Assembly (NCBI GenBank): GCA_963726435.1
Contig: CAVSCJ010000005.1
Span: 81,452 to 145,451, forward strand
DNA from: an uncultured Coriobacteriia bacterium
GTDB taxonomy: Bacteria; Actinomycetota; Coriobacteriia; Anaerosomatales; PALSA-660
Length of the DNA stretch: 64,000 nucleotides
Reading direction: 5' to 3'
In this document: piece by piece, positions 3,976 through 50,638 of the stretch
Layout of the letters: each line of letters opens with the position of its first letter
Numbering within the stretch: the stretch's first letter is position 1
Program-made: the position numbers and the translations under genes
Notes under the pieces: model-generated
Told to the model about the DNA's origin: nothing
Database searches by the model: none
The model's input: only the letters and a program-made list of their open reading frames with translations

Positions 3976-3999
3976 CGAGTGGCGTCTCCTTCAGGCAGC

Positions 4000-19024: not shown

Positions 19025-19028
<4 letters not shown>
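18612..19028 (-). CDS. Rrf2-family transcriptional regulator (CymR/IscR-like), intact.
   Basis: 138 aa: [72 protein letters not shown] 19028 overlaps the cysK stop as GTGA. Confidence 0.85.
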
Positions 19029-19988
<960 letters not shown>

Positions 19989-20034
19989 CGCAGACCTCCG
20001 TGATACGGCGGATGTAGCGGACGTCGTGGCGAAT

Positions 20035-20058
20035 GTACCCGCCTGCCGGCGCGGGTAC
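20035..20058. other. Palindromic hairpin GTACCCGC-N8-GCGGGTAC in the cysK leader/divergent spacer.
   Basis: Perfect 8-bp stem read directly from the sequence, lying between the putative cysK promoter and its RBS. Confidence 0.35.
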
Positions 20059-20067
20059 AAGACGATG

Positions 20068-20100
20068 AACCGCACCATTCTTCATGCTATACATGCGGTT
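20068..20100. promoter_or_regulatory. Inverted repeat AACCGCA-N19-TGCGGTT bracketing an AT-rich core (contains TATACA). Candidate operator of the divergent promoter region.
   Basis: Read directly from the sequence. It is located between cysK (minus) and the small plus-strand membrane ORF. Confidence 0.35.
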
Positions 20101-20562: not shown

Positions 20563-21118
20563 CGCCACCCGTGCCACGGGCAGATCAGCGTGTAGCCGTC
20601 GACGAACCCCTCCGCCAGCGGGCCGAACGCGTGGCGGCAGAGGTTGGAGAGCGCGAAGTAGTCGCCCTCGATTCGGACGAGCGCGAGTCGCGATTGCCGA
20701 TCTTCACGTGACGGGCCTGGCCGTCCGCAAGATCGTCGAACGCGGCCACACGCACGTCGACCGGGCCCGACACGGCCTCGACCACTCCGTGCAGCGCGCT
20801 GCCGTCCTCGACGTCGGTACGGATGAACAGCCCGCACCAGCACTTCTTCAGCGCTGCGAACTCGCTCAGGTGGAACTGTATGCACGGGCAGATGATGGCC
20901 ACGTCGGCCTTCGGATCGCCCGTCCTCAGGCGGCAGGGGCAGTAGACGTCGCCGGTCTCGGCGAGGATCTCGATCTCCGAGGTCAGGACCGCGTCGACGA
21001 ACTCAGCGTCGGTGTTGAAGCGGTAGCCGAGCCGCTCCACGAACGGAGTCATGTAGGCCTTCAGGTCGTCGAGCGTCGTGCCGTCTGCGAACCGCCGCCG
21101 CACGGGGTCGCCGCTCAC
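20460..21118 (-). pseudogene. Fusion of a ferredoxin-thioredoxin reductase catalytic-subunit-like domain (FTRc) with a Rieske [2Fe-2S] domain. There is one frame break inside the Rieske domain at about 20695.
   Basis: FTRc cysteines: YCPCRLR...IICPCIQFH...KKCWCGLFI. The same frame continues into the Rieske N-terminus GPVDVRVAAFDDLADGQARHVKIG. The rest, SRLALVRIEGDYFALSNLCRHAFGPL...ICPWHGWRYD...VAVRDGEVFV, is in ORF 20460..20885(-). GTG start 21118 follows GGAGAGGG. Confidence 0.75.
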
Positions 21119-21158
21119 CGGGTGCCGCCCTCTCCGTGAGATGGCCGGACGCACCCGG

Positions 21159-21407
21159 TCAGGCGCTGATCAGGCGCTGGATCCGGGACTTGTCGTAGCC
21201 GACGACGACTTCGTCGCCGATCACCACGACCGGGAAGGAGGTCCCGCCGGACAGCCGCTGTACCTCGTCGATGGCGTCGTTGCGCGCGGCCCCGGCGAGC
21301 TTGTCGACCTCGACGACATCGTATGCGACGCCGCTGTCGTCCAAGAACGCTCGGGCCTGATGGCAGTACGGGCACGTCGAAAGGGCGTAGACCTTGATCG
21401 GCGGCAC
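21159..21407 (-). CDS. Glutaredoxin-like protein (CPYC).
   Basis: 82 aa: IKVYALSTCPYCHQARAFLDDSGVAYDVVEVD...TSFPVVVIGDEVVVGYD. GTG 21407 follows GAAAGGAG. Confidence 0.85.
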   Translation of the reverse strand: MPPIKVYALSTCPYCHQARAFLDDSGVAYDVVEVDKLAGAARNDAIDEVQRLSGGTSFPVVVIGDEVVVGYDKSRIQRLISA

Positions 21408-21504
21408 GGGAACTCCTTTCGGCGTGCTGGTGGTTCGATGGGACGGCGCTGGGCGGCCTCCTGGTGTATGTTCCCCCTCAGGCGTCTCCGTCACGAGGAG
21501 AACC

Positions 21505-22101
21505 ATGGGTCGCAAGTATGAGAAGACGTCGGGCGAAGCGGGCAACGAGAAGCCCGGCACCCAGGCCACGGCGGTCCGGGGCCGGGCACTGCTCATCGTT
21601 CTCGGGACCCTGATAGCGCTCATCGCGCTCTCCGCAGGCGTCTGGTGGCTGACGGTGTGGTCCGGGAGCGAACGGCCCTCCGCCACGCAGGCCACGGAGC
21701 TCACCGCCCTGTCCGAGCGACTGGACGCCGTGACCGCGGCCATCACACCGATCGCCGTGGCCTTCACATCCGAGGCCGCCACGGCGCCGATCGACGTCGC
21801 ATCCTACCGGTCCCGCATAGCGTCCGCGCGGCAGGTCGTGGACCAGGTGAACGGGATCGCCGTCGCAGGCCCCGAGGCCCTGCAGGTCCGCGATCTGATA
21901 GTCACCGGCGGCTCCCAGGTGCTCGAGGGCCTCGATCTCGCTCTGGATGCCGCCGAGAGCGACGAGGCGAGTGCCACCGGGCCGGCGGCCATCGAGGTCG
22001 AGGCCGGCATGCAGTCGCTCAAGGAGGCCCGCGACCTTCTCGACACTCTGCTCGGGCGAACGTCGCTGACGGGATCGGACGAATGCGCTGCGGTGACCTG
22101 A
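21505..22101 (+). CDS. Hypothetical single-pass membrane protein.
   Basis: ATG follows AGGAG. TM helix ALLIVLGTLIALIALSAGVWWL, then an Ala-rich helical ectodomain. The stop abuts the next gene's start. Confidence 0.65.
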   Translation: MGRKYEKTSGEAGNEKPGTQATAVRGRALLIVLGTLIALIALSAGVWWLTVWSGSERPSATQATELTALSERLDAVTAAITPIAVAFTSEAATAPIDVASYRSRIASARQVVDQVNGIAVAGPEALQVRDLIVTGGSQVLEGLDLALDAAESDEASATGPAAIEVEAGMQSLKEARDLLDTLLGRTSLTGSDECAAVT

Positions 22102-33832: not shown

Positions 33833-34937
33833 TCAGGCGGAGCTTCTGGCGAGCTTCAGCGCCAGATGAGGGAACGCGCTCACGACCATGTCGACCAGCC
33901 GACCAGGTGGACGCGTGAGCGCATCCGTCACGGGAATGCCGAGTTCGAGCTCGTAGAGCACGATCGCGGTCGTGACTTCGGCGTCGGTCATGTGCTCGTG
34001 ATTGAGGGTCAGGCCGATGACCTTCGTGTCGGCGAACGCCTCGATCAGATCGATCTCGCTCCGGGGCGTCGGCATCGGGACGTCGGGGAAGTCGCTCATG
34101 CGCGTGCGCGCGGGCGCGTGCTGCAGGATGACGGCTTGAGGCTTGCTGCCGCGCAGGATGGCGCACGACGAGACGTAGGCGGGGTGGATCAGTGCACCCT
34201 GGCCCTCGATGACGATCACGTCCGGGTCCTCGCCGTCGAAGGCTTCGACCACGGAGGCTTCCATCTCCCCGGAGCAGAACTGGATGGGGACGGCGTCGAG
34301 CGCCACGCCGTAGCGGACGCCCTGGATGAGGCTCGTCTGCCCGGTCCCGACCAGAACCGCCTTGATGCCGCGCTGGTTGAGAGCCCGCACGAGGATCGTC
34401 GCCGTCGTGCGCTTGCCGATCGCGCCGTCGGTGCCCAGAACGGCGATGCGCGGACAGGTGACCGACGTCGATGCGCCCGCTCCAGAGCCGCAGGTGCTTC
34501 TTGTCTCGCGGGCGCCGCACGTCCAGGATCCTCACCCCGTGCGCCGCGGCCGCCGCTGCGAACTCGGGATCGTCGTTGAGGAACTCGTGGAGCCCGTTGA
34601 CGAGGTTCATCCCCAGTCCGATGGCTTCGAGCATGACCCCTCGTTCGACGGCGGAGAGCATGCCGCTCGAGGGCGCGATCCCGAAGACGAAGTAGTCGGG
34701 GACGCGACCGGCGATGGCGATCGCCTCCTCGAGATCGACGCAAAGCGGGATCCCGTTCGGCGTGCCGTCGAGCACGAACCCCGCATCGAGCCCGGCCTTC
34801 TGGCTGTCGATCACCGCGAGGATCTCGTACTTCTCGGAGTAGCGGACCAGACCGTTCGCGGTCTTGCCGTCGATGTCTCCGAAGTTCGCTTCGGCGTACA
34901 CGACGGCGGTGCCTTCGGTCGCGGGTGAACTGGACAT
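33833..34937 (-). pseudogene. DUF1611 family protein (DgcN-like) with one frame break at about 34463.
   Basis: The N-terminal half MSSSPATEGTAVVYAEANFGDIDGKTANGLVRYSEKY... is in ORF 33645..35576(-). TCPRIAVLGTDGAIGKRTTATILVRALNQRGIKAV... continues in ORF 33833..34390(-). Confidence 0.8.
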
Positions 34938-34987
34938 GTCGTCCTCCACATGGGCTGTCGGGGACCTACATGAAGGATTGTCCCACG

Positions 34988-35923
34988 CTACGCGGGAGTC
35001 GAACCGAACGGCAGCTGGTCGCGCAGGAAGTCGTCGGCGTTGGCGAATGCGAACTTCTCCGCGAGGTCTGCTCCGTAGGCGCGGTCGACCGCGACAAGCA
35101 AGGCGACCAGGGATGCGGGATCCGCAAGCTCGCCCATGGCCGAGACTCCCCAGTCGCTGCCGATCGAGACTGCGCCTTCGCCGGCCAGCGTGGCGATCCT
35201 GTCGACGTGGCCGAGGGCCTCGTCGACGGACCCGTGCTCGCCCAGGAAGTCCGGCGGGAACGCCAGACCGACGAGTCCGCCATGCTCGCCGAGAGCGCGC
35301 AGCTGATCGTCTGAAAGCCCCCTGGGATGCTCCACGATCGACCGGCAGAACGAGTGCGTCTCGAGCACCGGAGGCGAGTACAGCTCCAGTGCCTCGTAGA
35401 AGCCGGCCTCGTTGAGGTGGGCGAGGTCCAGGAAGAGCGGGCTCGTCTCGAGCTCGCCGAGGAGTCGCCGACCCGCCCCCTTGAGAGGGGCGGCGCCGTC
35501 GTCGTAGCAGCTGAACCCGTATGAGGTCTCGTAGTTCCAGGTCAACGAGAGACTCCGCAGGCAGTGCAGTCTCCAAAGCGTGTCGAGCGCGTCGGGCCCA
35601 ACACCCGGGAGTTCAAGACCTTCGGAGTGTGGAAGCACCCCCGTCCGCGGGTCCTCGGCGTCCAGGTCTTCGACGGTGGTTATCAGACGCAGGTGAGAGC
35701 CGTGTGAGGCGAGCAACTCGCCGTGAGCCTGGAGCTGGACGAGCAGACTGCTCTCAGGATGGTGCGGATACAGGGATGACCAGACAGCGGCGGCGCGGTG
35801 CGACCCGGAGAGGTAGCACGAACCGTAGACAGGAAAACCCCCATCGAGAAGGGCCACCCCGGACAGGATGTCCTGGTGCAGGTCGATGACCACGGGGGTC
35901 GGGCGTTCGCTGTGACCCTGCAA
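34988..35923 (-). CDS. Membrane dipeptidase family (peptidase M19).
   Basis: VVIDLHQD, SLTWNYETS, LDLAHLNEAGF, ETHSFCRSIVEHPRGLSDDQL, GGLVGLAF, IGSDWG. The start (TTG 35923 or a downstream GTG) is uncertain. Confidence 0.8.
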   Translation of the reverse strand: MQGHSERPTPVVIDLHQDILSGVALLDGGFPVYGSCYLSGSHRAAAVWSSLYPHHPESSLLVQLQAHGELLASHGSHLRLITTVEDLDAEDPRTGVLPHSEGLELPGVGPDALDTLWRLHCLRSLSLTWNYETSYGFSCYDDGAAPLKGAGRRLLGELETSPLFLDLAHLNEAGFYEALELYSPPVLETHSFCRSIVEHPRGLSDDQLRALGEHGGLVGLAFPPDFLGEHGSVDEALGHVDRIATLAGEGAVSIGSDWGVSAMGELADPASLVALLVAVDRAYGADLAEKFAFANADDFLRDQLPFGSTPA

Positions 35924-36054
35924 GGCGTGTACCTGCGCGTTCTCTCGTCTGCCGACTGGGCACCGTTCCGGACAGGGTGCGGTCGGACGCGGGACCGCGC
36001 ACGCGCTTCACTAGCGAGAACGGTTCCAACCGGCACGGATCCAAGCGGGCGCGG

Positions 36055-37394: not shown

Positions 37395-38501
37395 TCACCG
37401 GCCGAGCAATCCCAACACAGCGTCGGCTATGGCTCTCGAAGCTTCCGGACGAGCCATCTCGAGCATCCGGGCGGACATCGCGCTCAGCTCGCCGTTGCCG
37501 GACCGCAGCCAACGCTCGACCAGCGCCGCGGCCCGCTTCGGGCCCGGCTCGAACACAGCTCCGCCGTTGCGCTCGGCCCACGCGACGTTGTCCTCTTCCT
37601 GTCCGGGGACGAAGCCCGTCAGCAGCGTCGGCAGCCCGAGGCACGCGGCCTCGGCGACAGTCCCGGGCCCGGCCTTCGTGAGCAGGATGTCCGCCGCGAC
37701 CATCCACTCGGCCACGCGGTTCGTGAGCCCGAGGACGGCGACCGGGATCGGCCAGACGGCGCCCTCCAGCCGCCTCCGCAGGCGCTCGTTCCCGCCGGCG
37801 ATCACTGCCATCTGAGAGGGCACACCACCGTCCGCCAGCCGCTTGGCGACAGCGGCCGCCATCCCTCCGATGCGCCCCATCCCGGCGCCTCCTCCCATGA
37901 CGAGCACGAGCGGGAGGCCCGTCTCCACGCCCAGGGCGCGCCGGGCCTCGGCCTTCGACAGTCCCCGGGCCTCAACGAAGGCGCGTCGGATCGGCAATCC
38001 CGTCGCGACGACGCGGTTCGGCCGCATGCCCGCCTCGATCGCCAGCAGACGGATGTCACCGTCGGAGACGCAGCACAGGTCGGCACGCCTGGTGAACCAC
38101 GAGACGGGCGGCACCCCGCCGTCGACGACGACCGAGACGAACGGCGCCTTGCACCCGGCCGAGCGCATCGCCCGCAGGGGGACGCCGTTCAGTAGAGCGT
38201 GCACGCTGATCACGAGATCGGGCCTGGTGTCGAGGATGGCGCGTGCCATGTCCTCGCGGAGCAGTCCGTACGCCCCTCCCTCGAGGAGCCTGACACCGAC
38301 AGGAGTCATGACGACGTTGTAGGCGAGCCGGTAGAGGTCGGGCGCGATCGCGACCACGGGAGCATAGGAGTCCGAAACGTGGTTGAACGGGAACCGCGCG
38401 TGCTCGTCGAGCATGTTGACGAGCGTCACAGAAGCGCGACCCTCGAAAGCCTCCTCCAGGCTCTGGGCCGAGGCGAGGTGCCCGCCGCCGGCCCCTGTCA
38501 T
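37395..38501 (-). CDS. GT28-family glycosyltransferase (MGDG synthase / diacylglycerol glycosyltransferase-like). The N-terminus may extend to GTG 38550 through a CCCC-run indel.
   Basis: (RITIL)MTGAGGGHLASAQSL, LVLVMGGGAGMG, ADILLTKAGPGTVAEAACLGLP, GQEEDN. The conserved first strand RITIL lies upstream of the first ATG and has no in-frame start. Confidence 0.8.
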   Translation of the reverse strand: MTGAGGGHLASAQSLEEAFEGRASVTLVNMLDEHARFPFNHVSDSYAPVVAIAPDLYRLAYNVVMTPVGVRLLEGGAYGLLREDMARAILDTRPDLVISVHALLNGVPLRAMRSAGCKAPFVSVVVDGGVPPVSWFTRRADLCCVSDGDIRLLAIEAGMRPNRVVATGLPIRRAFVEARGLSKAEARRALGVETGLPLVLVMGGGAGMGRIGGMAAAVAKRLADGGVPSQMAVIAGGNERLRRRLEGAVWPIPVAVLGLTNRVAEWMVAADILLTKAGPGTVAEAACLGLPTLLTGFVPGQEEDNVAWAERNGGAVFEPGPKRAAALVERWLRSGNGELSAMSARMLEMARPEASRAIADAVLGLLGR

Positions 38502-38567
38502 CAGGATGGTGATCCTGGGGAGTCCGCCGGTCAGCCCTCCGGACCGACACGATCCGAGGCAGCGCGC

Positions 38568-40097
38568 TCACAGCTCCCGGCCTTCGGCGGATGCCGCGGC
38601 GGATTCGCGGACCGGGCGAACACCAAGGCGCAGCCTCTTTCGTGTCACCTTCCACTCCAGCGGCAGCCCCAGTGCCAGGTTGGTCTGCGCGTCGAGCGCG
38701 GGCAGCAGGCCGAACGCGATGCCTGCGACCGGAAGGAGCGCCCACATCTTCGCGATCTCGAGCGCCGCCCACATGAAGTGCCGGTCGCCAGGCGGGAACC
38801 GCACGACGTCGATCGCCATCGACGTGACGATCACGACTGTGGAGACCGTGAACAGCCCTGTGACCAGAATCGCGAGCGCGCCGGGCGGGCGAAGGAGCAC
38901 AGGCATCAGAGAGAGACTCGCCGCCGCGCTGAAGCCGACAACCGGCAGCACGTGGTCGTGAAGGACCTGACCCAATCGGAGCCAGACCGATCTGTCCGTC
39001 TTCCCTGAAAGCAGTTGCCCGGCGAGGAAGCCGACATCCGCGGCGCCCCAAGCATGCCGTCGCAACTGCACGTAGCGGTTGCGCAGCGCCGAGAGCCACG
39101 TGTCGCCCTCGGCCGAGTCCAGCGACACGGGAAGGTAGACGGGGACAACGGAGACGTCTCCTCCGCGCTGCACCATGTAGTCCAGGTAGATGTGCCAGTC
39201 CTCAGCGATGACCGCGGGGTCCCACCAGTCGCACTCCTGGGCGAGGCATAGGCTCATCGTGTACGTCGAGATGGGAAGCGGATCGTATCCGGGAAGGGTC
39301 AGCTCGGCCAGGACGTACAGTTGCGTCAACCGCGCTGTGAACCGCACCGGGGCCGGTACCCGCCACATGTTGTTGTGGTAGAGGAGCGGCGCCTGCCAGA
39401 AGCGGGTGTGCCGGCGTTCGTCGCGGGCAAAGAGCTCGGCGACCGCGGCGAAGTAGTTCGGATCGACCACGGAGTCGGCGTCGCAAGCGGTCAGCGTGAC
39501 GAGCGACGACGCGACGCCCATCCTCTCCAGCTCCTCGCGCGCCATCCGGGCGGCCCACCGCAGATTGGCCGCCTTGACCTGCAGCTCGCCCGGAAGGCCG
39601 TCGGGATGGATGGTCACGAGGACGTGCGCGAACGCGGCCGCGTACTCGCGCGCGAGCGTGTCCCCTTTCGCAGCCGAGCCGGACTCGCGCTCCTCCATGG
39701 CGAGCACGACCACGAGGCGCTCCGGCGCATCGCCCTGAGCGGCGAGCGCGTCGAGCGTCCGGCGCAGGACGGGAGCGGGCTCCGTGTGGTTCGGCACCAG
39801 CACCACATGCCACACGTCCGCCGGCGCTATTCCGCCTGGACCGGGAACGTCCCGCGCGGCGCCCCAGTCCTTGAGCCGCCACCGCCGGCAGCGCTGCACG
39901 CCGACCGTGTAGAGGAACAGGTGGGCGGTGATCCACACGACGAAGTAGGCGAAGAGGACGGCAGCGATCCACATCCACTGCAGCGGGAACAGCGCGAGCC
40001 CGAAGATCATCGCGATGACGACCGTCCAAGAGACGGCCGCTGGGAGAGCTTCCCCCATACGGATCCGCACCGATCGGACCCGGGTTGATGCAGTCAC
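38568..40097 (-). CDS. Integral-membrane GT2-family glycosyltransferase.
   Basis: N-terminal TM pair, catalytic region VVLVPNHTEP...LTACDADSVVDP...QAPLLYHNN...RRHAWGA, C-terminal TM cluster. GTG 40097 follows GAAGGGGA; ATG 40058 is an alternative start. Confidence 0.8.
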   Translation of the reverse strand: MTASTRVRSVRIRMGEALPAAVSWTVVIAMIFGLALFPLQWMWIAAVLFAYFVVWITAHLFLYTVGVQRCRRWRLKDWGAARDVPGPGGIAPADVWHVVLVPNHTEPAPVLRRTLDALAAQGDAPERLVVVLAMEERESGSAAKGDTLAREYAAAFAHVLVTIHPDGLPGELQVKAANLRWAARMAREELERMGVASSLVTLTACDADSVVDPNYFAAVAELFARDERRHTRFWQAPLLYHNNMWRVPAPVRFTARLTQLYVLAELTLPGYDPLPISTYTMSLCLAQECDWWDPAVIAEDWHIYLDYMVQRGGDVSVVPVYLPVSLDSAEGDTWLSALRNRYVQLRRHAWGAADVGFLAGQLLSGKTDRSVWLRLGQVLHDHVLPVVGFSAAASLSLMPVLLRPPGALAILVTGLFTVSTVVIVTSMAIDVVRFPPGDRHFMWAALEIAKMWALLPVAGIAFGLLPALDAQTNLALGLPLEWKVTRKRLRLGVRPVRESAAASAEGREL

Positions 40098-40256
40098 AGA
40101 GATCCCCTTCGAGGTGGCCTGAAGACGATGATGAGTGAACGGAGCTTCTTGGGGACAAGACCACACAGGAAACGCACGGCACTTCGCGCGCGTCCAGTGC
40201 CTGACCACACACTAGACTGTTGTCTACCCCGATGGTCCGAGAGAGCGGCTGCCCAC

Positions 40257-41720
40257 ATGACCGAAGAGACCCCCCACGTTCGCGCGACCTCCGAGAACCC
40301 TGAGAACATCGGCGACCAGGACCGCCTCACCATGGAGGCGGACACGGTTCTGCCACCCGCCGTGCTCGTAAGGCGCGGGTGGGTGGCGAGCACGTTCGAG
40401 TCCTTCCACTACCGGGACTTCACGCTGTTCTGGTCGGGCGCGCTCGTGAGCAACGTCGGCACGTGGATGCAGAACGCGGCGCTCGCCATCGTCGTCTGGT
40501 CGTTCCAGCCCGCGCAGGCGTCGCTCAACACGGGCATCGTCCAAGGCATCGCCGGTCTGCCGGTCCTGTTCCTCGCGATCCCCGCGGGCGCCGTCGCCGA
40601 CCGGGTCGACCGGCGCAGGCTGCTCATCTGGATCCAGGTCGTACTGCTCCTCCAGGCGGCTGCCATGGGCGTCCTCTACGACGCCAACGTTCTCAGTTCC
40701 AGGCAACCCGTCCTCTCGCTCGTGATCGTAGCGACACTCGGTCTCCTAGGCGGGGTATTCGTGGCCTTCCAGGGCCCCGCGTTCCAGTCGATCCTGCCCG
40801 ACCTCGTCCCGCGCGCGTCGCTCATGAACGGCATCGCGCTCAACTCGGCGCAACTGCAGTCCTCGCGGATGCTCGGGCCCGCGATAGTCGCGGCCATGGT
40901 GCTCGCCGGCGCGGGAATGGGGCTGGTCTTCTACATCAACGCGCTGAGCTTCCTGTTCGTGATCGCCGCGCTGCTCGCGATCCGGCCGCGCGCGGAGTTC
41001 CGCGCCGGCCGCGGTGCCGAAGCGGCTGACAACCCCGCGGAGACGCCGGGTCCCGGGGCGCGTGGCACGGCCGGAGTGGAGGCGGCGGAGGTCGTGAGCG
41101 CCTGGAAGACACTGATGGCCGGCGTCGCATACGCGCGCGAGAACAGCGCCATCGGCGTGCTGATCCTGACCACGGCGCTGCTCGTCTTCCTGGGCTTCCC
41201 GTACGTGATCATCCTCACCGCTGTCATCCAGACACGGTTCGCAGGCGCCGACGTCGCGCGGCTCTACGGGATCGTCTACACCTTCAACGGCATGGGCGCG
41301 CTCATCGGAGCGCTCGGCATCGCGGGCCTGCCGGCCACGATCAAGCGCAACCGCGTCATACCGCTGGCGCTTCTGGCCTTCTCGGCGCTGATCATCGCGT
41401 TCTCGCTCGCTCCAACACTCCTGGTGATGATCGTCTGCACGACGCTGGCCGGCGCCGCGTACATGGCGACCAGCTCGCTGGTCATGACGTCGATCCAAGC
41501 AGCCGTCCCGGGCCATCTTCGAGGTCGCGTCATGGCGCTCTTCATGATGTCCTTCATGGGCGTCATGCCGCTCTCCGCGTTCGCCTTCGGCCCGCTGGGC
41601 CAGGCGATCGGGCCGGACACGGCGGTGCTCGCCGGCGGCGTGCTGCTCCTGGCGTGGGCGGCGCTCCTAGCGCTGCGGCCGTCGTGGCTGCAGGCGATCT
41701 CGCCGGTGCCGAAGGCGTGA
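40257..41720 (+). CDS. MFS transporter (MFS_3/EntS-like).
   Basis: FHYRDFTLFWSGALVSNVGTWMQNAA, ADRVDRRRLL, 12 or more hydrophobic helices. The start is ATG 40257 or 40332. Confidence 0.85.
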   Translation: MTEETPHVRATSENPENIGDQDRLTMEADTVLPPAVLVRRGWVASTFESFHYRDFTLFWSGALVSNVGTWMQNAALAIVVWSFQPAQASLNTGIVQGIAGLPVLFLAIPAGAVADRVDRRRLLIWIQVVLLLQAAAMGVLYDANVLSSRQPVLSLVIVATLGLLGGVFVAFQGPAFQSILPDLVPRASLMNGIALNSAQLQSSRMLGPAIVAAMVLAGAGMGLVFYINALSFLFVIAALLAIRPRAEFRAGRGAEAADNPAETPGPGARGTAGVEAAEVVSAWKTLMAGVAYARENSAIGVLILTTALLVFLGFPYVIILTAVIQTRFAGADVARLYGIVYTFNGMGALIGALGIAGLPATIKRNRVIPLALLAFSALIIAFSLAPTLLVMIVCTTLAGAAYMATSSLVMTSIQAAVPGHLRGRVMALFMMSFMGVMPLSAFAFGPLGQAIGPDTAVLAGGVLLLAWAALLALRPSWLQAISPVPKA

Positions 41721-41754
41721 AGAGACTCGGCGCCGGAGACGCTGTCCGCGCCTG

Positions 41755-43296
41755 CTACAAGTCTCGCAGCGTGTCGAGGTAGGTGCGGTATTCGGGGTCG
41801 CGCATGAACTCCCGGATGCGGCGCCGGCCCTCGGCCAGGAAGCTCGTGGGCGCGAACTTGTACTGCACGTGCAGCCATGCCCACGACGCCGCGCGCTCCC
41901 GAAGAGGCATCCGTGCGAGCTCGGCGAGCTGCGCTTCGCCGAGGCGCCTGAATCGCCCGAGTGCGCCTCGCACCGCGGCCGCGACGATCCGAGGGAGCGA
42001 GTAGAAGCGCCGGTACGCGCGTTCCACGTGCCCCTGCATCTGAGCCGCTGTCATGTTCTGGGGACGTATCGCGACGTGCATCCCGTCGAAGAAGCGAAGC
42101 CCGTCGAGGGTCTTGAACAAGACCGCCCCCACCGACTCGTGCTCGGCGGTGCGCTTCGTCCCGGGAAGCGGCGTCTCGAACAGGTACTGAAGAGAGCTGA
42201 CGCAACGTCTCGCGAACTCGCCGTCGTGGCGGATCACTTCTGCAGTGTCCTCGACGAACGCGATGAACATCCCGTGGACGAGCAGGCCCTGTCTCCGCAT
42301 CGCGCGCAGAGCGCGGGCCGTCCTCGTCGAGTCCGCCTTCTTATGGATCCGTGCGAGGGCTTCGTCGCTCGCGGATTCCACCCCGACGCACACGACGGTC
42401 ACCGCGGCAGCGCGCTTCAGCAGCCTGAGGAACTCCTTGTCGATGCGGCCGTCCCCGGCGAAGACCGAGTCGGCGCGCAGTTGCGTAACCAAGATCCGTG
42501 CGAAGCCGTGCTGAGCGACCGCTCTGAGGAAGTCCTTGAACGCGTGCTTGTCGGCCGCCGCGTTGTCGTCGATGAGGAACGCCGTCCCGAACCCCTGGGC
42601 CTGGGCCTCGAGGAGTTCGCCCAGCGCTTGTTCATCACTCCGTACCGTGTAGCGCGGCCAGATCTGGCAGACCTCGCAGAAGTCGCAGCGCTGAGGACAA
42701 CCCCGCGCCCTCCACACCGCTGCGACGTCGGCCCGGCCGTAGTCGTGGACGAGCGTGCGGTCCACGCGCGGCAGCGCGTCGAGTTCGGCGCGGGTCAGCT
42801 GCTCGGACGGCGGACCCTGCAACGTCGTCGCCCCGGTCCGCCACACGAGACCGGGAATGTCGGCGAAACGCTCGTCGCCCCGTCCGCACACGACGGCGAG
42901 GAACCGCGGGAGCGTCCGCTCGGCTTCCCCACGCAAGACGAAGTCCGCGCCGATGTCCAAGCTGCGCTCGGGCGCACACGTGGGCTCGGGGCCGCCGAGC
43001 ACGATCGTTGCCTGCGGATTTAGGGCGCGAGCGTGTTCGAGCAGGTCGCGCGTGCGCGGGAGCGTGCATGTGATCGCCGAGAAGCCGACGACGTCACAAG
43101 AGGCGACGTAGTCCCAGTCGGTCGAGTCCTTGCCGCTGACGTCCTCGATGAAGGCGCGCACGTCGTAGCCGGCCTCGCGCACTACGGTAGCCAGTATCGG
43201 CGCGCCGCGCCCCATGGCGACGCCCGTGTAGATGTTCAGCCCCGGCGAGCCGGCCTCTATGATGGCCACCCGGCGCCCGCCTTGCCCGATACCCAT
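41755..43296 (-). CDS. B12-binding-domain radical SAM protein.
   Basis: N-terminal Rossmann-like B12-binding region (VVGFSAITCTL...IVLGGPEPT), followed by RGCPQRCDFC (CxxxCxxC). Confidence 0.85.
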   Translation of the reverse strand: MGIGQGGRRVAIIEAGSPGLNIYTGVAMGRGAPILATVVREAGYDVRAFIEDVSGKDSTDWDYVASCDVVGFSAITCTLPRTRDLLEHARALNPQATIVLGGPEPTCAPERSLDIGADFVLRGEAERTLPRFLAVVCGRGDERFADIPGLVWRTGATTLQGPPSEQLTRAELDALPRVDRTLVHDYGRADVAAVWRARGCPQRCDFCEVCQIWPRYTVRSDEQALGELLEAQAQGFGTAFLIDDNAAADKHAFKDFLRAVAQHGFARILVTQLRADSVFAGDGRIDKEFLRLLKRAAAVTVVCVGVESASDEALARIHKKADSTRTARALRAMRRQGLLVHGMFIAFVEDTAEVIRHDGEFARRCVSSLQYLFETPLPGTKRTAEHESVGAVLFKTLDGLRFFDGMHVAIRPQNMTAAQMQGHVERAYRRFYSLPRIVAAAVRGALGRFRRLGEAQLAELARMPLRERAASWAWLHVQYKFAPTSFLAEGRRRIREFMRDPEYRTYLDTLRDL

Positions 43297-43438
43297 GGGT
43301 CACCCGTCTCATCGTTGGTCGCACTCTGCGGATAGCGGGAATGTACCCAACGCTCGAGTCGGCGCGCCCGCTCTTCGACGCGACCCTCCCGAGATGTGCG
43401 TGCCCGCGCGCGATCCCATAGACAGGAGGGCTGGCGAG

Positions 43439-44446
43439 GTGCCCCATCTCCTCGAACCGCTGACGGACTGCAAGCTCGTCCTCAAGAACCGACTCGTGAT
43501 GCCGCCGATGGCGACGTCGAAGGCCGACCCCGACGGGAGCATGAGCGGCGCACTGCTCGCGTACTACGACGAGAAGTCGCGCGGCGGCGCCATCGGGCTG
43601 ATCATCACCGAGCACTGCTACATCACCAGGCAGGGCATGAACCGGGTCGGGCAACCCTCGATCGCGGATGACGGCACGATCGAAGGGTGGAGGGAGCTGA
43701 CCTCGATCCTCCACGGCAACGGCTCGAAGGCGGTCATGCAGATCAACCACGCGGGGGCCGCCAGCAGCGCCGCGGCCACGGGGCTCGAGGTGGTCGGCCC
43801 GTCGAACGTGCCTCTCCCCTTGGGCCGGCCCGAGACACCCCGAGGACTCACGCACCGTGAGATCGACATCTTGGTCGGGCAGTTCGCCGCAGCGGCACGC
43901 CGAGTGAAGGAGGCCGGGTTCGACGGCGTGGAGATCCACGGCGCCCACGGATACTTGCTGAACCAGTTCTTCTCGCCGCTGACCAACAAGCGGACCGACG
44001 AATACGGAGGCGTCGTGTTCGGCAGGATCCGCCTGCATCTGGATGTGATCGCTGCAGTGCGCGAGGCGGTCGGTGAGGAGTTCCCCGTCCTGTTGCGACT
44101 CGGCGCCCGCGACTACATGGAGGGCGGCACCCGCATCGAGGACAGCACGATCGCGGCGGTCGAGTTCGAACGGGCCGGGGTCGATATCCTGGACGTCACC
44201 GGCGGCCTGACGGGCTACATCAGGCCGGGACACGACGAGCCGGGGTACTTCGCCGAGTTGTCCGAGGCCATCAAGGGCGTGGTGTCGATCCCGGTGATCC
44301 TCACCGGAGGCGTCACGGAACCGCAACACGCCGAGAGGCTCCTTGCCGAGGGCAAGGCCGACCTCATCGGCGTCGGCAGGGCGATCCTGGGCGATTCCTC
44401 GTGGGCCCAGCGGGCCGTCAGCTCACTCCAAGGGGGACCGGGCTAG
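43439..44446 (+). CDS. NADH:flavin oxidoreductase, Old Yellow Enzyme family.
   Basis: NRLVMPPMAT, MQINHAG, GFDGVEIHGAHGYLLNQFFSPLTNKRTDEYGG, ADLIGVGRA. GTG 43439 follows AGGAGGG. Confidence 0.88.
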   Translation: MPHLLEPLTDCKLVLKNRLVMPPMATSKADPDGSMSGALLAYYDEKSRGGAIGLIITEHCYITRQGMNRVGQPSIADDGTIEGWRELTSILHGNGSKAVMQINHAGAASSAAATGLEVVGPSNVPLPLGRPETPRGLTHREIDILVGQFAAAARRVKEAGFDGVEIHGAHGYLLNQFFSPLTNKRTDEYGGVVFGRIRLHLDVIAAVREAVGEEFPVLLRLGARDYMEGGTRIEDSTIAAVEFERAGVDILDVTGGLTGYIRPGHDEPGYFAELSEAIKGVVSIPVILTGGVTEPQHAERLLAEGKADLIGVGRAILGDSSWAQRAVSSLQGGPG

Positions 44447-44733
44447 GCGCCCGATCTCGCGAGCGGGCCGATACCGGCGAACACGTGCAGGGCCCGATCG
44501 CCCTCGATCGTCGGCGGCCCGCAGACTTCCACCGGACCGGACCTGCCGTCGGCGATCTCGATCCGCATCTGCTCGGCGGGCTCGATGATCAGACCGAGCG
44601 GAAGCGCGGCGTGAGCGTGCCACCCCGCACCGTCCGGCGAGCCTCCGGGAGCGTCGGTGAAGTCCAACAGGACGGTGACACCGGACACAACGACCGTCTC
44701 GCCGTCGAAGATCGTGGCTTCGACCTCTTCCAT
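44443..44733 (-). CDS. Hypothetical 96-aa protein.
   Basis: ATG 44733 follows GGAAGGAAGGGA. No recognisable motifs. Confidence 0.45.
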   Translation of the reverse strand: MEEVEATIFDGETVVVSGVTVLLDFTDAPGGSPDGAGWHAHAALPLGLIIEPAEQMRIEIADGRSGPVEVCGPPTIEGDRALHVFAGIGPLARSGA

Positions 44734-44960
44734 CAGCGGATCCCTTCCTTCCCAGGCAGGTCGACGTATATGTGAGTACGTACCCGGGAGGGAGGCGCCG
44801 GACCCCACGGGCCGAGTGCCGACGCTACAGAAGGGGAAGAGGAGGCCCCGATCCGGCATGAGGAGGTCCTCATCCCTGGGGGAATGCTGAATGTTTGCCG
44901 AACGGCACTCCGGCTCGGCCGCGGCACGGGGCTTGCTCGGCCTCCCACCGTGAAGACCCA

Positions 44961-45665
44961 GTGAAAGTCCATCGCATCCAGGGCATCGCGTTCTCCAGCT
45001 ACCTCATCGAGACACCCGCAGCGCTCTTCCTAGTCGACAGCGGCTTCCGCTGGTTCGAGAGTCTCATCACGCGCAAGGTGCGCTCGATCGGGCGCAGCCT
45101 CGGCGACCTCAGGCTCGCCGTCCTCACGCACCCGCACCTCGACCACGTCGGCTCGATCCCGGCGCTCCTGAAGCGGGCGGACTTCGAGATCGCGGCGCAC
45201 CCCGCATCTTGCGAAGTGCTCTCGACCGGCGGCCGCGACTTCTCCCCCCCGACCAGGAACTGGACCCGCGCGGTCGGATGGCTGGCCACGAACGCGATGC
45301 CGCTGCTTCATCTGCCCGCCATCGCGCCGACGTTCGCGCTGAACGACGGCCGGCGTCTTGACGACTTCGGCCTTGCCGGCGCTCTCCACTTCACGCCCGG
45401 GCACAGCAAGTGGTGCATCTCGCTGCTGCTGGACGACGGGACGGCGTTCGCGGGCGACCTTCTGATAGGGCCCGGCCACATGACCCGCGACGTGGCGCCC
45501 CCTGCGATGGCGGCGGACCCGGAAGGGGCGTTCCGCAGCATCCGGAAGCTGCTCGACGCCGGCGCCACGCGGTTCATGCCGGCCCACGGGCGGGCATTCC
45601 GCGCGGGCGACGTGAGGGAGATGCTCGCCGATCTCGACACGGGTGGATCGGGGCCGGTGACCTAG
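44961..45665 (+). CDS. MBL-fold metallo-hydrolase.
   Basis: LVDSG, LTHPHLDHVGS, TPGHS. GTG 44961 is the most plausible start. Confidence 0.8.
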   Translation: MKVHRIQGIAFSSYLIETPAALFLVDSGFRWFESLITRKVRSIGRSLGDLRLAVLTHPHLDHVGSIPALLKRADFEIAAHPASCEVLSTGGRDFSPPTRNWTRAVGWLATNAMPLLHLPAIAPTFALNDGRRLDDFGLAGALHFTPGHSKWCISLLLDDGTAFAGDLLIGPGHMTRDVAPPAMAADPEGAFRSIRKLLDAGATRFMPAHGRAFRAGDVREMLADLDTGGSGPVT

Positions 45666-46140: not shown

Positions 46141-47112
46141 GTGGGTTGTGTCGAGACAGAAGAGACTTTCGATTCGCGGATCTCGGAACTGGACGAGTCG
46201 TCTCGGCGCGGGTTGGATCTGCGCGCCCTGACCGTCAGCGTGACGCTACGATGCAACCAGGTGTGCTCGCACTGCCATGTGAGCGCCTCGCCTTCACGAG
46301 GCGAGATGATGGGCGCGGACACGATGGCGCGAGTCGTTGAAGTCGCGTCGGACCTCGGTCCCGAGGTCGTCGACATCACCGGTGGGGCGCCCGAGCTCAA
46401 TCCCCTCCTGCCCGACCTCCTCCGCGCGCTTCGCGCGCACGGACACCGCGTGCAGCTCCGCACGAACCTGACGGTACTCGCGGACCCCGAACATGCAGCG
46501 CTGGCTGGCCTCTACGCTTCTTCCGGGATCGAGCTGCTCGCGTCGCTGCCGTGCTACACCGTCCGCAACGTCGACCTGGGCCGTGGCCCGGGAGTGCACG
46601 ACCTGAGCGTGCGGATGCTGCTCGCGCTCAACGCGCTGGGGTACGGCACGGATGGCGGACCCCGGCTCGACCTCATCTACAACACCGTCGGTACGACCCT
46701 CCCCGAGCCGCAGGCCATGCTGGAGGAGCTGTTCCGCGAAGAGCTGGCCGCGAGGTTCGGCATCGTCTTCACCCACCTGCTCACGATGACGAACATGCCG
46801 GTAGGGCGCTTCCGCGACCGTCTGATCGCTGAGGGAGGATACGATCGCTACCTTCGCGCACTGCGAGAGGCCTTCAATCCGGAGGTCGTCCCCTTCCTGC
46901 AGTGCAGGCACCAGGTCGAGGTCGGATGGGACGGGCGGCTCTACGACTGCGACTTCAACCTCGGGCGGGGGATACCCGTGTCGCACGATGCGCCCCCGAC
47001 GGTGTGGGAGTTCGACGCCGAGGCCCTGGCGACGCGGCGGGTGGTCCACTCCGTCCACTGCTTCGGCTGCACGGCGGGCGCGGGATCGAGTTGAAACGGC
47101 GCGCTGACATGA
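46141..47112 (+). CDS. arsS: Radical SAM/Cys-rich-domain protein of the ArsS (rSAM/selenodomain) type. The in-frame TGA at 47092-47094 is read as probable selenocysteine.
   Basis: TLRCNQVCSHCHV (CxxxCxxC), DITGGAPELNP, ASLPCY, MTNMPVGRF, LYDCDFN. The C-terminus is HCFGCTAGAGSS-TGA-NGALT-TGA, and the family motif is GSS[C/U]GG. GTG 46141 follows GAAGGGA. Confidence 0.8.
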
Positions 47113-47126
47113 CCGGTCCGGTCAGC
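47103..47126. other. Palindromic stem-loop GCTGAC-N12-GTCAGC (inner alternative TGACC-GGTCC-GGTCA) between the convergent arsS and arsM-like genes. Candidate SECIS for arsS and/or a bidirectional terminator.
   Basis: Read directly from the sequence. It starts 9 nt after the arsS TGA and spans the second TGA. Confidence 0.4.
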
Positions 47127-47137
47127 CGCACCTGCCG

Positions 47138-47866
47138 CTACGAGGGCTTCGCCGCCAGGAACGACGCCCAGTAGGTGTAGTCGTTCCGGGGGTTGGGGCG
47201 CTCGTCGAGTTGCTCCGCGACGAACCCCACCGACTCGAGCATCGCCTTCAACTCCGCCGCCGGCAGAGCGCCCGAGATTCAAAGCGACCAGCTGTCCGGG
47301 TCAGCCGACACCTCGGCCGCCTTCTCGGGCTTCAGGACGGCGTCGCACAGTGCGAGCCGCCCGCCGGCGCGGAGCACGCGGTGAGCCTCGGCGAGGAGTT
47401 CCGGCTTCCTCGGCGACAGGTTGAGGCAACCGTTCGACTGGACCGCGTCGAACGCGCCGTCGTCGAAGGGCAGGCGCTCCGAGGCGTCAGCCAGCAGGAA
47501 GGTCACCGGCGCGGAAGGCGCCATCGCCGCCGCCTCGCGTGCCCGCCCGATCATCTCGGGAGTGATGTCCACGCCCACGACTTCACCCTCCGGTCCCACG
47601 GCAGCCGCCGCCACCAGAGCGTCGAGGCCGCCGCCGCAGCCGATGTCCAGTACTCGCTCGCCCGCGGTGAGCCGCGCGAAGGAGGCCGGGTTCCCGACCC
47701 CCACGAACGACTCGAGCGAAACCACCGGGATGCCGTCGAGAGTATCGCCGTACCCCAGGTACTCCGCGCAGCGGTTGCCGGTCCACACGCCGAAACCAGC
47801 GTCGATGCCGAGCGCCACCCGGGAGAAGCGCTTGAGGACCGAATCGGTTATCTCGTCCGCCTGCAT
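47138..47866 (-). CDS. arsM: ArsM/UbiE-type SAM-dependent methyltransferase. The in-frame TGA at 47279-47281 is read as probable selenocysteine.
   Basis: VLDIGCGGGLD, VVGVDITPEMI, FDAVQSNGCLNLSPRK, RVLRAGGRLAL. The ORF stops at TGA after DSWSL, but the frame stays open through ISGALPAAELKAMLESVGF...AAKPS to TAG 47138. ATG 47866 follows GAAGGGGAG. Confidence 0.72.
47251..47269 (-). other. Candidate SECIS-like hairpin G-CUCUGCC-GGC-GGCGGAG-U, 10 nt downstream of the arsM-like UGA.
   Basis: Stem of 7-8 bp including one G-U pair, folded by eye. No covariation or predictor support. Confidence 0.3.
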
Positions 47867-47876
47867 GGTCTCCCCT

Positions 47877-49208
47877 TCACCGTGGATGCCGCCAGCCGTC
47901 GAGGACCGCCGGGTCGATGCCGAACCGATACCCCGCGATGATCGCGAGGTACGCCGCGGACGCACGCACGACGCCTCCTTCGTTCCAGCGGCGGCTCGAA
48001 GTGAGCGCGCGCTGGGGCAGGATCCGCACGGAACCGAGCCGCATGATCCTGCGCGAGAGCTCCCAGTCTTCCATCACCGGCTGCGTGGGGTAGCCGCCCA
48101 GGTCCTCGAAGGTGCGCTTGGTCATGAAGAGCGCCTGGTCGCCGTAGGGGACTCGGAAGACGGCCATCCTCATCCGGCCGGCGAGGGTGAAGAGGCGGGC
48201 CAGCGGCGTGTCGTACGTCCCCCAGCTGAAGGCACCCCCGCTGGTCCCTTCGGCGGACAGCGCTCGGCACACCAGTGCGGCCGACTTGGCGGGCAGCGTG
48301 GTATCGGCGTGCAGGAACACGAGCGCATCGCAAGTCGCCGCCCTCGCCCCCGCGTTCATCTGCCCGGCACGGCCCCGCGGGGCGTCGATCACTCGGGCGC
48401 CGGCGCTCCTGGCTGCGTGCGGCGTGCCATCCTGGCTTCCTCCGTCGACCACTATCACCTCGCGAGCGCCTCCGCTGAACGCGCTGCTCACGGCGGCGCC
48501 CACGCGATCCGCCTCATCGAGCGCGGGGATGACCACCGAGACCGAGGCAGGGGGAGTCCGCTCAAGACGGCGCTCCGCCTCCCATAGGGGGAGGTCCTCC
48601 GGGCGGTCCACGTCGGCCAAGCGGTCGGCGAAGCCGACGGTCAGACCAGCCTGCCCGGCACGGCGCAGAGTGTCGCGGAAGACCGTGTCCGCACCCCACT
48701 CGATCCCCTCGAACAGTACCGGGAGTCCTCGATGCGCAGCGCGCGCGCTGACGCCGAGAAGCCAGTAGCCGCCGTCCTCGGCGGGACCGATCACCACGTC
48801 GTGCGTCGCGAGTTGTCGCAGCGCCGCGCGCACGTGTGTCGCGCGCGCGGCCGGGCAGTCCGAGCCCACCACGACCGCCGAAGGAGCGCCGGACCGGAAG
48901 GAAGACGACATCGCCGAGCGCAGCCGGTCGCCCAGGTCGCCCTCCGGCTGCGGCGCGAAACGCGGCCAGTCGCCCAGCCACGCCGCGACTTCGCCGGGCG
49001 ACCCGCCATCGACGTGAACCTCGATATCAGCGTCGCCGGAGGCCTGCAGCGGCCTCATCCGCGAGACGCAGTGGGCCGCGAGCTCGCGGTGCAGCGCCGC
49101 CGCGCCCTCCGCGCCCAGCCGCGGGATCAGGCGGCTCTTCACCTCGCCGGACCTGGGGAACCGGGCCACGACAGCGACGACGGGCCGCTTGCGGGATGCC
49201 GCCGTCAC
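47877..49208 (-). CDS. Fusion of rSAM/selenodomain-associated transferase 1 (DUF2064/TIGR04282-like) and transferase 2 (GT2, TIGR04283-like).
   Basis: N-terminal half: VVARFPRSGEVKSRL, VVGSDCP, IGPAEDGGYWLLG. C-terminal half: VSVVIPALDEA, VIVVDGGSQDGT, RGRAGQMNAGA, FLHADTTLP, YGDQALF, MEDWELSRR, TSSRRW. GTG 49208 overlaps the upstream stop as GTGA. Confidence 0.85.
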   Translation of the reverse strand: MTAASRKRPVVAVVARFPRSGEVKSRLIPRLGAEGAAALHRELAAHCVSRMRPLQASGDADIEVHVDGGSPGEVAAWLGDWPRFAPQPEGDLGDRLRSAMSSSFRSGAPSAVVVGSDCPAARATHVRAALRQLATHDVVIGPAEDGGYWLLGVSARAAHRGLPVLFEGIEWGADTVFRDTLRRAGQAGLTVGFADRLADVDRPEDLPLWEAERRLERTPPASVSVVIPALDEADRVGAAVSSAFSGGAREVIVVDGGSQDGTPHAARSAGARVIDAPRGRAGQMNAGARAATCDALVFLHADTTLPAKSAALVCRALSAEGTSGGAFSWGTYDTPLARLFTLAGRMRMAVFRVPYGDQALFMTKRTFEDLGGYPTQPVMEDWELSRRIMRLGSVRILPQRALTSSRRWNEGGVVRASAAYLAIIAGYRFGIDPAVLDGWRHPR

Positions 49209-50638
49209 AGCTCGGCCTTGAAGTCGTTGTGTCCCACGAGTATCCGGAGCGCGCCTCTCAGCGCGGGGTTGTCCCGCAAGTGCTCGGCGTACTCGGCGTC
49301 CGCCGGTCGCTTCACGGCGTCGGCGAAGGTCGGATAGGCGTGCAACACCGATGAGAGCGAGGAGAGCGGCATGTCGTTGTGGAGCAGGATCGCGGCCTCG
49401 TTGATCAGCTCGCCCGCGCGCGGCCCCAGGATGTGAGCTCCGAGGAGGTGCCCGCGATCGTCGAGGACGTACTTCGCGACGCCATCCGTCGCGGCCTCGG
49501 TGCGGGCGCGGTCCTGAGTCGAGAAGTCGTACCGGCGAACCCGGACCGAGTCACCGTACGCCTCGTGCGCCTGCGCCTCCGTCATGCCGAGATGCGCCAG
49601 CTCGGGCTCCGTGAACAGCACCCACGCGATGTCCCTCCAGGCGACCTTGGGTCCGACCGGCAACAGGGCGTTGGTGGCGGCGGCGATCCCCTCGCGCTCG
49701 GCCGTGTGCGTGAAGCGATAGGGGCCGGTGACGTCACCCGCGGCGAAGATGTGGCGCGCTGTCGTCCGCATGTGAGCGTCGGTGACTATGCCGCGTTCTC
49801 CGACCTCCACGCCGGCGGCCTCCAGCCCTTCAGGGACGACCGGCATGCGGCCGGCCGCCACGAGCAACCTTTCTGCCTCGAACTCCCTGCCGCCTCCGAC
49901 CAGAACGACGCCGCCGTCACGCGGTTCGACGCGCTCGAGAGGAACGCCCGTCACGATCTCGACTCCCTGCGACGCAAGCACCGCCCTGAGCCGTTCGACA
50001 AGCTCCGGCTCCTCCGCGCGCAAGAGCTCGGAGCGCACCAGCATGGTGACCCGGGTCCCCAGTCTCGTGAACGCGGAGGCCATCTCGACCGCCACCGGCC
50101 CGCCGCCGAGGATGGCCAGCGACCGCGGCAGCACATCGATGTCCCACAGGGTGTCAGAGGTGAGCGCCGCGGTCTCGTCCAGCCCCGGGACCCGAGGGAG
50201 GAGCGGCCGGGAGCCGGTGGCGATAACAAAGCGGCGTCCCACCAACGTACGACCGCCGACCTCGACCACGCTCGGCTCCACGAAACGGGCCTCGCCCGCA
50301 AAGACCTCGAGGCCGTAGCCCGCGAGGACTTCCGCTGAGTCGTGCTGGCCGATCTGCTCCCTCACCGAGCGCACGTGAGCCATCACGCCCGACGTGTCGA
50401 TCCTGAAGGGCCCGTCCGGCGCAAGGCCGAACCGTTCCAGCTGATCCGGGACCGAGGCGGCACGGGCCGCCGCGAGCAGGGTCTTGCTGGGCACGCAGCC
50501 GCGCCACGTGCACTCCCCGCCGAGCTGTCCGCGCTCGACTATGGCGACGCTCGCGCCGAGACCTAGACCCACGAGCGCCGCTGTCCGACCGGCAGAGCCC
50601 GAGCCGAGCACCACTAGATCGAATCGCGCCTCTTCCAC
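49205..50638 (-). CDS. Pyridine nucleotide-disulfide oxidoreductase (dihydrolipoamide dehydrogenase / mercuric-reductase-like class I).
   Basis: DLVVLGSGSAG, redox-active GGECTWRGCVPSK, ILGGGPVAVE, AAGDV, C-terminal HAYPTF. Confidence 0.88.
   Translation of the reverse strand: MEEARFDLVVLGSGSAGRTAALVGLGLGASVAIVERGQLGGECTWRGCVPSKTLLAAARAASVPDQLERFGLAPDGPFRIDTSGVMAHVRSVREQIGQHDSAEVLAGYGLEVFAGEARFVEPSVVEVGGRTLVGRRFVIATGSRPLLPRVPGLDETAALTSDTLWDIDVLPRSLAILGGGPVAVEMASAFTRLGTRVTMLVRSELLRAEEPELVERLRAVLASQGVEIVTGVPLERVEPRDGGVVLVGGGREFEAERLLVAAGRMPVVPEGLEAAGVEVGERGIVTDAHMRTTARHIFAAGDVTGPYRFTHTAEREGIAAATNALLPVGPKVAWRDIAWVLFTEPELAHLGMTEAQAHEAYGDSVRVRRYDFSTQDRARTEAATDGVAKYVLDDRGHLLGAHILGPRAGELINEAAILLHNDMPLSSLSSVLHAYPTFADAVKRPADAEYAEHLRDNPALRGALRILVGHNDFKAEL

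Follow-up and report, generated by a model that had tools for sequence, protein, structure and literature searches.

A predicted selenocysteine codon at the Cys224-equivalent position of an ArsM-like methyltransferase encoded beside arsS in an uncultured Coriobacteriia bacterium

Introduction

When an in-frame TGA codon falls exactly where a methyltransferase family would be expected to carry its metalloid-binding cysteine, is the gene broken, shortened or recoded? This question is raised by a 64-kb stretch of DNA (68% G+C; hereafter called the window) from contig CAVSCJ010000005.1 of an uncultured Coriobacteriia bacterium, the minus strand of which carries a gene for an ArsM-like class I S-adenosylmethionine (SAM)-dependent methyltransferase at 47138..47866. 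An original prediction for this locus proposed that the TGA encodes selenocysteine (Sec) at the equivalent of Cys224 of Cyanidioschyzon ArsM (CmArsM), that a selenocysteine insertion sequence (SECIS) follows it, and that the convergent arsS is a second Sec gene. The sequence-level tests that we ran agree with this proposal, and we consider that the TGA at 47281-47279 is very probably a selenocysteine codon.

Selenocysteine at a Cys224-type position of arsenite methyltransferases has been known since 2007, which answers a question that the original prediction had left open, namely whether such homologues were already catalogued. Table 1 of a recent survey lists arsenite methyltransferase as a prokaryotic selenoprotein with the motif UxxG, giving Fomenko et al. 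2007 as the reference (PMC13188914), and the Sec family has been counted as 8 sequences in the Global Ocean Sampling (GOS) marine metagenomes (PMC2398784) and as 41 genes in 39 bacterial genomes (PMC5029168). The radical SAM family TIGR04167, to which ArsS belongs, is likewise a catalogued selenoprotein, with the motif GxxU (PMC13188914). ArsS adenosylates dimethylarsenite to give 5'-deoxy-5'-dimethylarsinoyl-adenosine (PMC13598754).

Gene structure and conservation of the TGA codon

The methyltransferase open reading frame (ORF) starts at ATG 47866-47864, 13 nt past the stop codon of the upstream glycosyltransferase gene, and runs for 195 codons to ...EVSADPDSWSL before it meets TGA 47281-47279. 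Beyond this codon, the frame stays open for another 46 codons (ISGALPAAELKAMLESVGFVAEQLDERPNPRNDYTYWASFLAAKPS; 47141..47278, minus strand), which have the pattern ISGAL...NPRNDYTxWASF..K and are closed by TAG 47140-47138, so that the start, TGA and open tail lie just where the original prediction had placed them. Read through, the gene comprises 242 codons, that is, 195 amino acids, the predicted Sec196 in the motif U-I-S-G (TGA at 47279..47281, minus strand) and a 46-aa C-terminal tail, within which AMLESVGFVAEQLDER and NDYTYWASFLAAK are predicted peptides. The G+C content at third codon positions (GC3) is 0.96 in the tail versus 0.90 in the part upstream of the TGA. Adjacent-gene junctions aside, no other TGA in the window is followed by 25 or more in-frame codons with a high-GC3 coding signal; elsewhere in the window TGA is an ordinary stop, for example at 47879-47877.

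Among 5.8 billion proteins searched were about 65 homologues with 68-99% identity; each terminates after 193-208 aa and spans 81% of the query, which places their ends at the same position. Remoter matches fall into two groups, one of about 200 aa and one of full-length proteins of 260-290 aa, and the full-length forms run across the TGA position as W-x-G-C-[IL]-[AS]-G-[AG]-L. At the DNA level, the comparison covered 64 distinct loci from genome representatives of Actinomycetota, Chloroflexota, Acidobacteriota, Eisenbacteria and Proteobacteria (individual loci are given here as L001, L002 and so on). Where a stop codon occupies the column, it is TGA in 48 of 48 distinct loci and TAA or TAG in none, and the 16 further loci have a cysteine codon, TGC or TGT, in its place; cysteine is also the residue of this column in the solved ArsM structures. 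The original prediction had held two chance nonsense mutations, here and in arsS, to be unlikely, and both this exclusive use of TGA and the singularity of the site within 64 kb bear it out.

In all TGA and Cys loci the frame runs on into a conserved tail ending in ...KP, so that conserved coding sequence lies downstream of each of the 48 TGA codons, and the same pattern at the TGA column is repeated in four further contigs of the close clade. Matches found with tblastn in L006-L010 span the stop, covering query residues 1-240. A codon alignment of the close, ArsS-linked clade gave a ratio of nonsynonymous to synonymous change (dN/dS) of 0.2-0.5 for the tail, at proportions of synonymous differences (pS) of 0.3-0.6, and of 0.1-0.2 for the part upstream; tail indels are in-frame only and no stops occur. 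The tail of this clade is thus under purifying selection. Decay of the downstream codons, or homologues without the ISGAL tail, had been named beforehand as signs that would speak for a plain stop, and neither was seen: the tail is conserved, and the Cys homologues read through with the same tail architecture.

Two departures from the general pattern were noticed. In a 51%-identical homologue present as L009:2679 and L010:2679, a Cys codon stands immediately before the TGA (EAWAC-U-IAGAL), a vicinal Cys-Sec pair that is absent from the other sequences. On a Logan contig (L005:1444-1590), the gene has a pS of 0.006 relative to L003 over the 190 codons before the TGA and diverges sharply from it just past the hairpin described below (tail pS 0.34), where it resembles L007 and L002; this switch reflects either 3'-end recombination or an assembly chimera.

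A SECIS-like hairpin downstream of the UGA

Ten nucleotides after the UGA begins a hairpin, GCUCUGCC-GGC-GGCGGAGU (47251..47269, minus strand), which the original prediction had described as 7-8 bp long and spaced as in a bacterial SECIS. The hairpin is real, with a stem of 8 bp, the loop GGC, a folding energy of -11.9 kcal/mol and 17 nt between the UGA and the loop. The bacterial SECIS (bSECIS) model calls for an apical loop of 3-9 nt, a stem of 4-16 bp, a G in the first two loop positions, a UGA-to-loop distance of 16-37 nt and a minimum free energy (MFE) at or below -7.5 kcal/mol (PMC13188914), and the hairpin falls within all of these limits, its 3-nt loop starting with GG.

When pairing was scored in a fixed register, 7.1 of 8 positions were paired in the TGA forms versus 4.9 of 8 in the Cys forms (Mann-Whitney p = 5e-7), and slid-register controls gave 2.7-4.0 of 8. 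Compensatory changes are found at several pairs. Pair 11/27 is CG in 33 sequences and GC in 11, pair 12/26 is UA in 30 and CG in 8, and in L087 the pair that closes the loop is U-A in place of C-G. Among the close-clade sequences, seven combine the rare Ala codon GCU with GAG (Glu), an eighth having UCU (Ser), and GCC pairs with GGG (Gly) in three, and amino-acid changes are therefore tolerated where the helix is preserved. These data indicate that the hairpin is specific to the TGA forms and covaries among them. Fixed-register pairing is the sole discriminating hairpin test among those run, since whole-context folding energy did not separate TGA forms from Cys forms (-23.8 vs -23.7 kcal/mol).

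Assignment to the ArsM lineage and the cysteine columns

The Pfam profiles Methyltransf_31 (95.9 bits), Methyltransf_25 (80.4 bits) and Methyltransf_11 all match the protein and identify a class I SAM-binding domain, and a phmmer search against solved structures aligns it with Chlamydomonas ArsM (5evj, E = 1e-21) and Cyanidioschyzon ArsM (4fr0/4kw7). The cysteines that define ArsM are Cys44, Cys72, Cys174 and Cys224 (PMC5552862). The TGA falls on the cysteine of 'geCL(a/g)GAL', which is CmArsM Cys224, and Val57 falls on the Cys72 column, where GCG has become GVG; because the structure alignment puts both on these columns, the original prediction had placed the TGA and the valine correctly. It had treated the valine as a feature of this enzyme, but all 66 sampled members of the family have V or T in the Cys72 column, and this enzyme is therefore not alone in the loss. 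The partner cysteine that it had seen in QSNGCLNLS does exist, as Cys147, but stands one residue after the Cys174 column, which is Gly146 here and Gly in 66 of 66 members, so that the SNC motif is absent.

Two further cysteines are confined to a minority of the family. Cys33 precedes the Cys72 column by 24 residues, compared with 28 for Cys44 in CmArsM, in an N-terminus that is outside the phmmer alignment; it is present in 7 of 50 Sec-form sequences and in 0 of 16 Cys forms. Cys147, one position beyond the Cys174 column, is present in 8 of the 50 and likewise in 0 of the 16. Across the 66 members, the sole invariant Cys/Sec residue is that of the TGA column.

The replaced residues of the Cys72 and Cys174 columns weigh against assigning an arsenic substrate to this enzyme, as does the failure to reach curated ArsM scores, namely 172.1 bits against a cut-off of 263 for NF008823 and 58.6 against 400 for the arsenosugar ArsM model NF038099. 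The best NCBIfam matches are NF041537 (199 bits), NF047649 (182 bits) and NF008823, every one under its cut-off.

ArsS and the gene cluster

On the plus strand, arsS (46141..47112; 46141, the first start codon of the ORF, is a putative start) encodes a radical SAM (seleno)protein that scores 349.9 bits with TIGR04167, above the cut-off of 300, and has Radical_SAM and DUF3641 domains with the cluster motif CNQVCSHC (CxxxCxxC). Near its end, CFGCTAGAGSS leads into a TGA at 47092-47094, giving the motif G-S-S-U, followed by NGALT and the stop TGA 47110-47112; score, cluster motif, DUF3641 and the Sec/Cys at the GxxU position all identify it as an ArsS. The TGA, which the original prediction had already located at a conserved C-terminal cysteine, is kept in close relatives (L001-L004, L007 and L086-L088).

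A second SECIS-like hairpin, UGACCG-GUC-CGGUCA (47110..47124, plus strand), has a stem of 6 bp and the loop GUC, which lies 21 nt from the UGA, with folding energies of -7.3 kcal/mol alone and -15.3 in its 44-nt context, and its sequence UGACCGGUCCGGUC is common to all close homologues. The stop codon of arsS (47110-47112), 5 codons after the predicted Sec, forms the first three bases of this hairpin. The convergent stops of arsS and the methyltransferase gene are 25 nt apart, and since the hairpin lies in this gap, it might also serve as a terminator for both genes.

Directly upstream of the methyltransferase gene lies a fused TIGR04282 and TIGR04283 'arsenosugar biosynthesis' glycosyltransferase (DUF2064 and glycosyltransferase family 2, GT2; 47877..49208, minus strand), with 206.1 bits for TIGR04283 (cut-off 182) and 177.1 for TIGR04282 (cut-off 134). 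The first gene of the cluster (49205..50638, minus strand) encodes a class I pyridine nucleotide-disulfide oxidoreductase with Pyr_redox_2 and Pyr_redox_dim domains, which is MerA- or lipoamide dehydrogenase-like, has the redox motif CTWRGC and is under all equivalog cut-offs. The order of oxidoreductase, glycosyltransferase fusion, methyltransferase(U) and convergent ArsS(U) recurs, in part or whole, on 8 independent contigs with 68-99% identity, including one in which it is rearranged.

Downstream of arsS, the block at 37398-45665 encodes a metallo-beta-lactamase (MBL)-fold hydrolase, an Old Yellow Enzyme (OYE)-type flavin oxidoreductase, a B12-binding radical SAM enzyme, a major facilitator superfamily (MFS) transporter, a GT2 protein and a glycosyltransferase resembling monogalactosyldiacylglycerol (MGDG) synthase. 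The near-identical contig L003 has the block too, except for the MBL-fold hydrolase, and tblastn with three of the genes of the block (MBL, OYE and B12-binding radical SAM) did not find them in more distant relatives. In the closest genome relative (83% identity), a heliorhodopsin gene (L001:5424-6185) lies some 4 kb upstream of the conserved cluster.

Elsewhere in the window, a single stop-to-stop ORF at 18615-20081 (minus strand) combines half a PALP domain (profile positions 3-141 of 295) with a complete Rrf2 domain and is possibly a cysteine-synthase-like gene, truncated or decayed, beside its regulator. At 33836-36007 (minus strand), only the C-terminal P-loop domain of DUF1611 is found (33836-34531), and the adjoining M19 dipeptidase starts at profile position 67; gene calls in L001:879-2767 show the same split into a short M19, a DUF1611_N and a DUF1611 piece, a pattern for which frameshifts, wrongly called starts or true fragmentation may be responsible. 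A small redox module is suggested by adjacent ORFs at 20588-21803 (minus strand), one like the catalytic subunit of ferredoxin:thioredoxin reductase and the other carrying a glutaredoxin domain at its C-terminus.

Selenocysteine decoding and alternative readings of the TGA

Several findings weigh against the overall interpretation. ARAGORN found no tRNA in the 64-kb window and thus no tRNA-Sec, and SelA, SelB and SelD domains were absent from the scanned window ORFs (30 by Pfam and five cluster-region proteins). Nor were selA, selB, selD or tRNA-Sec found within 10 kb of the gene in close relatives. The 42-nt context of the hairpin, a 68% GC sequence, is no more stable than its shuffles (z = -0.09), and Rfam assigned no family, either in the whole window at the gathering threshold or at 47000-47400 with E <= 10, a null result that is uninformative for bacterial SECIS elements. 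In addition, the remoter TGA-form homologues, of about 45% identity, are not beside ArsS.

One locus in the set places a homologue beside Sec-decoding genes. In L017 (1515-3994), from a Sporichthyaceae metagenome-assembled genome (MAG), a TGA-form homologue (TGA 2187) is followed by tRNA-Sec (2837-2931, minus strand) and selD (2990-3994; TIGR00476, 394.9 bits), a compact selenium-utilisation neighbourhood; a tblastn search with this SelD as the query found no SelD-like sequence in the window or in any locus save L017 itself. TGA forms of the methyltransferase thus occur in Sec-decoding actinobacteria, which is no proof for the genome of the window.

Genuine termination, which would yield a functional 195-aa product and leave a separate small ORF, a regulatory RNA or a terminator downstream, is very unlikely. 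Gene callers do give a product of 194-195 aa together with a separate ORF of 34-43 aa in the tail, the hairpin could in principle be an RNA element, and Sec machinery was not found in the window. However, the full-length Cys homologues read straight through as C-[IL]-[AS]-G-[AG] with the same tail architecture, and ISGAL right after the TGA is conserved as protein, upstream of any internal start. Termination would also leave the exclusive use of TGA unexplained, the hairpin is without a U-tract, and the short product would lose the family's only invariant Cys/Sec.

Equally improbable is a read-through of the UGA without Sec, whether by near-cognate insertion of Cys or Trp or by lineage-specific recoding, to produce a full-length selenium-free protein. 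The signs of full-length translation would leave the inserted residue unfixed, and no Sec machinery was found in the window; yet TGA is the normal stop for the neighbouring genes and no other such in-frame TGA read-through was found in 64 kb. The codon, moreover, occupies the classic Cys/Sec column of a catalogued selenoprotein family with the motif UxxG, the hairpin fits the bSECIS model, and a TGA-form homologue stands beside tRNA-Sec and selD in L017.

Although the original prediction noted decayed genes in the window, where half a PALP domain (18615-20081) and an M19 domain beginning at profile position 67 occur, and although window scans did not reveal Sec machinery, the conservation data effectively refute a plain nonsense mutation that has turned the gene into a decaying pseudogene with its open tail as a leftover: the same stop recurs throughout the approximately 65 homologues of 68-99% identity and is TGA at all 48 distinct loci, the tail stays in frame and is under purifying selection at pS up to 0.6, its GC3 is 0.96, the hairpin covaries, arsS shows the same pattern, and pS values of 0.4-0.6 exclude that the close relatives are one clonal population. 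Neighbouring genes that end in TGA and the presence of only one read-through site also led us to reject a genome-wide reassignment of UGA.

Proposed function and significance

If the TGA encodes selenocysteine, as we think very probable, then Sec196 would be the conserved nucleophile, and the Cys224-equivalent metalloid ligand, of a 242-residue SAM-dependent methyltransferase. During translation, the hairpin at 47269-47251 would recruit SelB with Sec-tRNA(Sec), and the ribosome would insert Sec at the UGA and go on through the 46-codon tail. Sec196, probably aided by the clade-specific Cys147 and Cys33, may bind trivalent arsenic species, which the enzyme would then methylate and supply to ArsS, the latter starting arsenosugar synthesis. 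Since ArsS adenosylates dimethylarsenite, the likeliest role of the methyltransferase would be to supply it with methylated trivalent arsenic. Taking homology and synteny together, we put a role in arsenic methylation at roughly even chances.

A more speculative and rather doubtful idea is that the ArsS-linked clade is unconventional and represents a distinct double-selenoprotein organometalloid pathway of uncultured soil Actinomycetota, in which the substrate would be passed on through Se-As or Se-Se bonds. This idea may draw on the loss of Cys72 and Cys174 and the gain of Cys33 and Cys147 around an obligatory Sec, on the Sec-containing ArsS, and on the dedicated oxidoreductase and fused glycosyltransferase. 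Such a pathway might also depart from the cyanobacterial ArsM-to-ArsS route in its substrate or product, examples being a selenium species, a lipid-linked compound and a monomethylated arsenical.

The genes of this clade are consistently miscalled in public databases. Each of the approximately 65 homologues found there is truncated at 193-208 aa and so lacks the one Cys/Sec residue that is invariant in the family, and those that are named carry only generic labels (SAM-dependent, arsenite or UbiE-type methyltransferase). The locus adds an uncultured soil Actinomycetota lineage with predicted Sec in both enzymes of an ArsM-like/ArsS pair, which helps to annotate genes of arsenic and selenium cycling in soil metagenomes, and the family offers a natural comparison of Sec and Cys at a metalloid-binding site. 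Knowledge of recoding or of selenoprotein families is unchanged. A modest interest lies in the departure of the clade from the canonical ArsM cysteines, its tight link to ArsS and the uniform truncation of the public calls.

Comparison with known systems

The best-scoring NCBIfam models include ArsM-fusion multi-selenoproteins, reportedly defined by Haft and Tolstoy in 2025, namely NF041537 (ArsM/AhpD), NF041536 (ArsM/DUF2284) and NF047649 (methyltransferase/UXPK-star). The protein of the window shares with them the methyltransferase domain and the same UxxG Sec; however, its scores of 199, 172 and 182 bits compare with cut-offs of 510, 575 and 460, respectively, and the matches cover the methyltransferase part only. 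Unlike the fusions, it has no AhpD, DUF2284 or UXPK-star part, contains a single predicted Sec and ends 46 codons after it.

With canonical ArsM/AS3MT (4fr0/4kw7 and 5evj), there are in common the fold region, the SAM-binding motifs and the ligand context C-[IL]-x-G-A-L. The window protein differs in keeping only the Cys224 column, as predicted Sec, with a Cys at 174+1, and in being about 140 aa shorter (242 vs 377-387 aa), without the large C-terminal domain. Its partner ArsS is an ordinary Sec-form member of TIGR04167, with the predicted Sec at the catalogued GxxU position (GSSU) and nothing notably different about it; its hairpin overlaps its own stop codon.

The catalogued Sec arsenite methyltransferase (PRK11873/NF008823) is likewise a class I SAM enzyme of the ArsM lineage with Sec at the Cys224 column in a U-x-x-G motif (here UISG), Cys homologues and a bSECIS-type hairpin after the UGA. 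The window protein stands apart from it in its NF008823 score (172 vs 263), in the Val and Gly at the Cys72 and Cys174 columns, in its short tail of 46 aa and in the link of its clade to ArsS.

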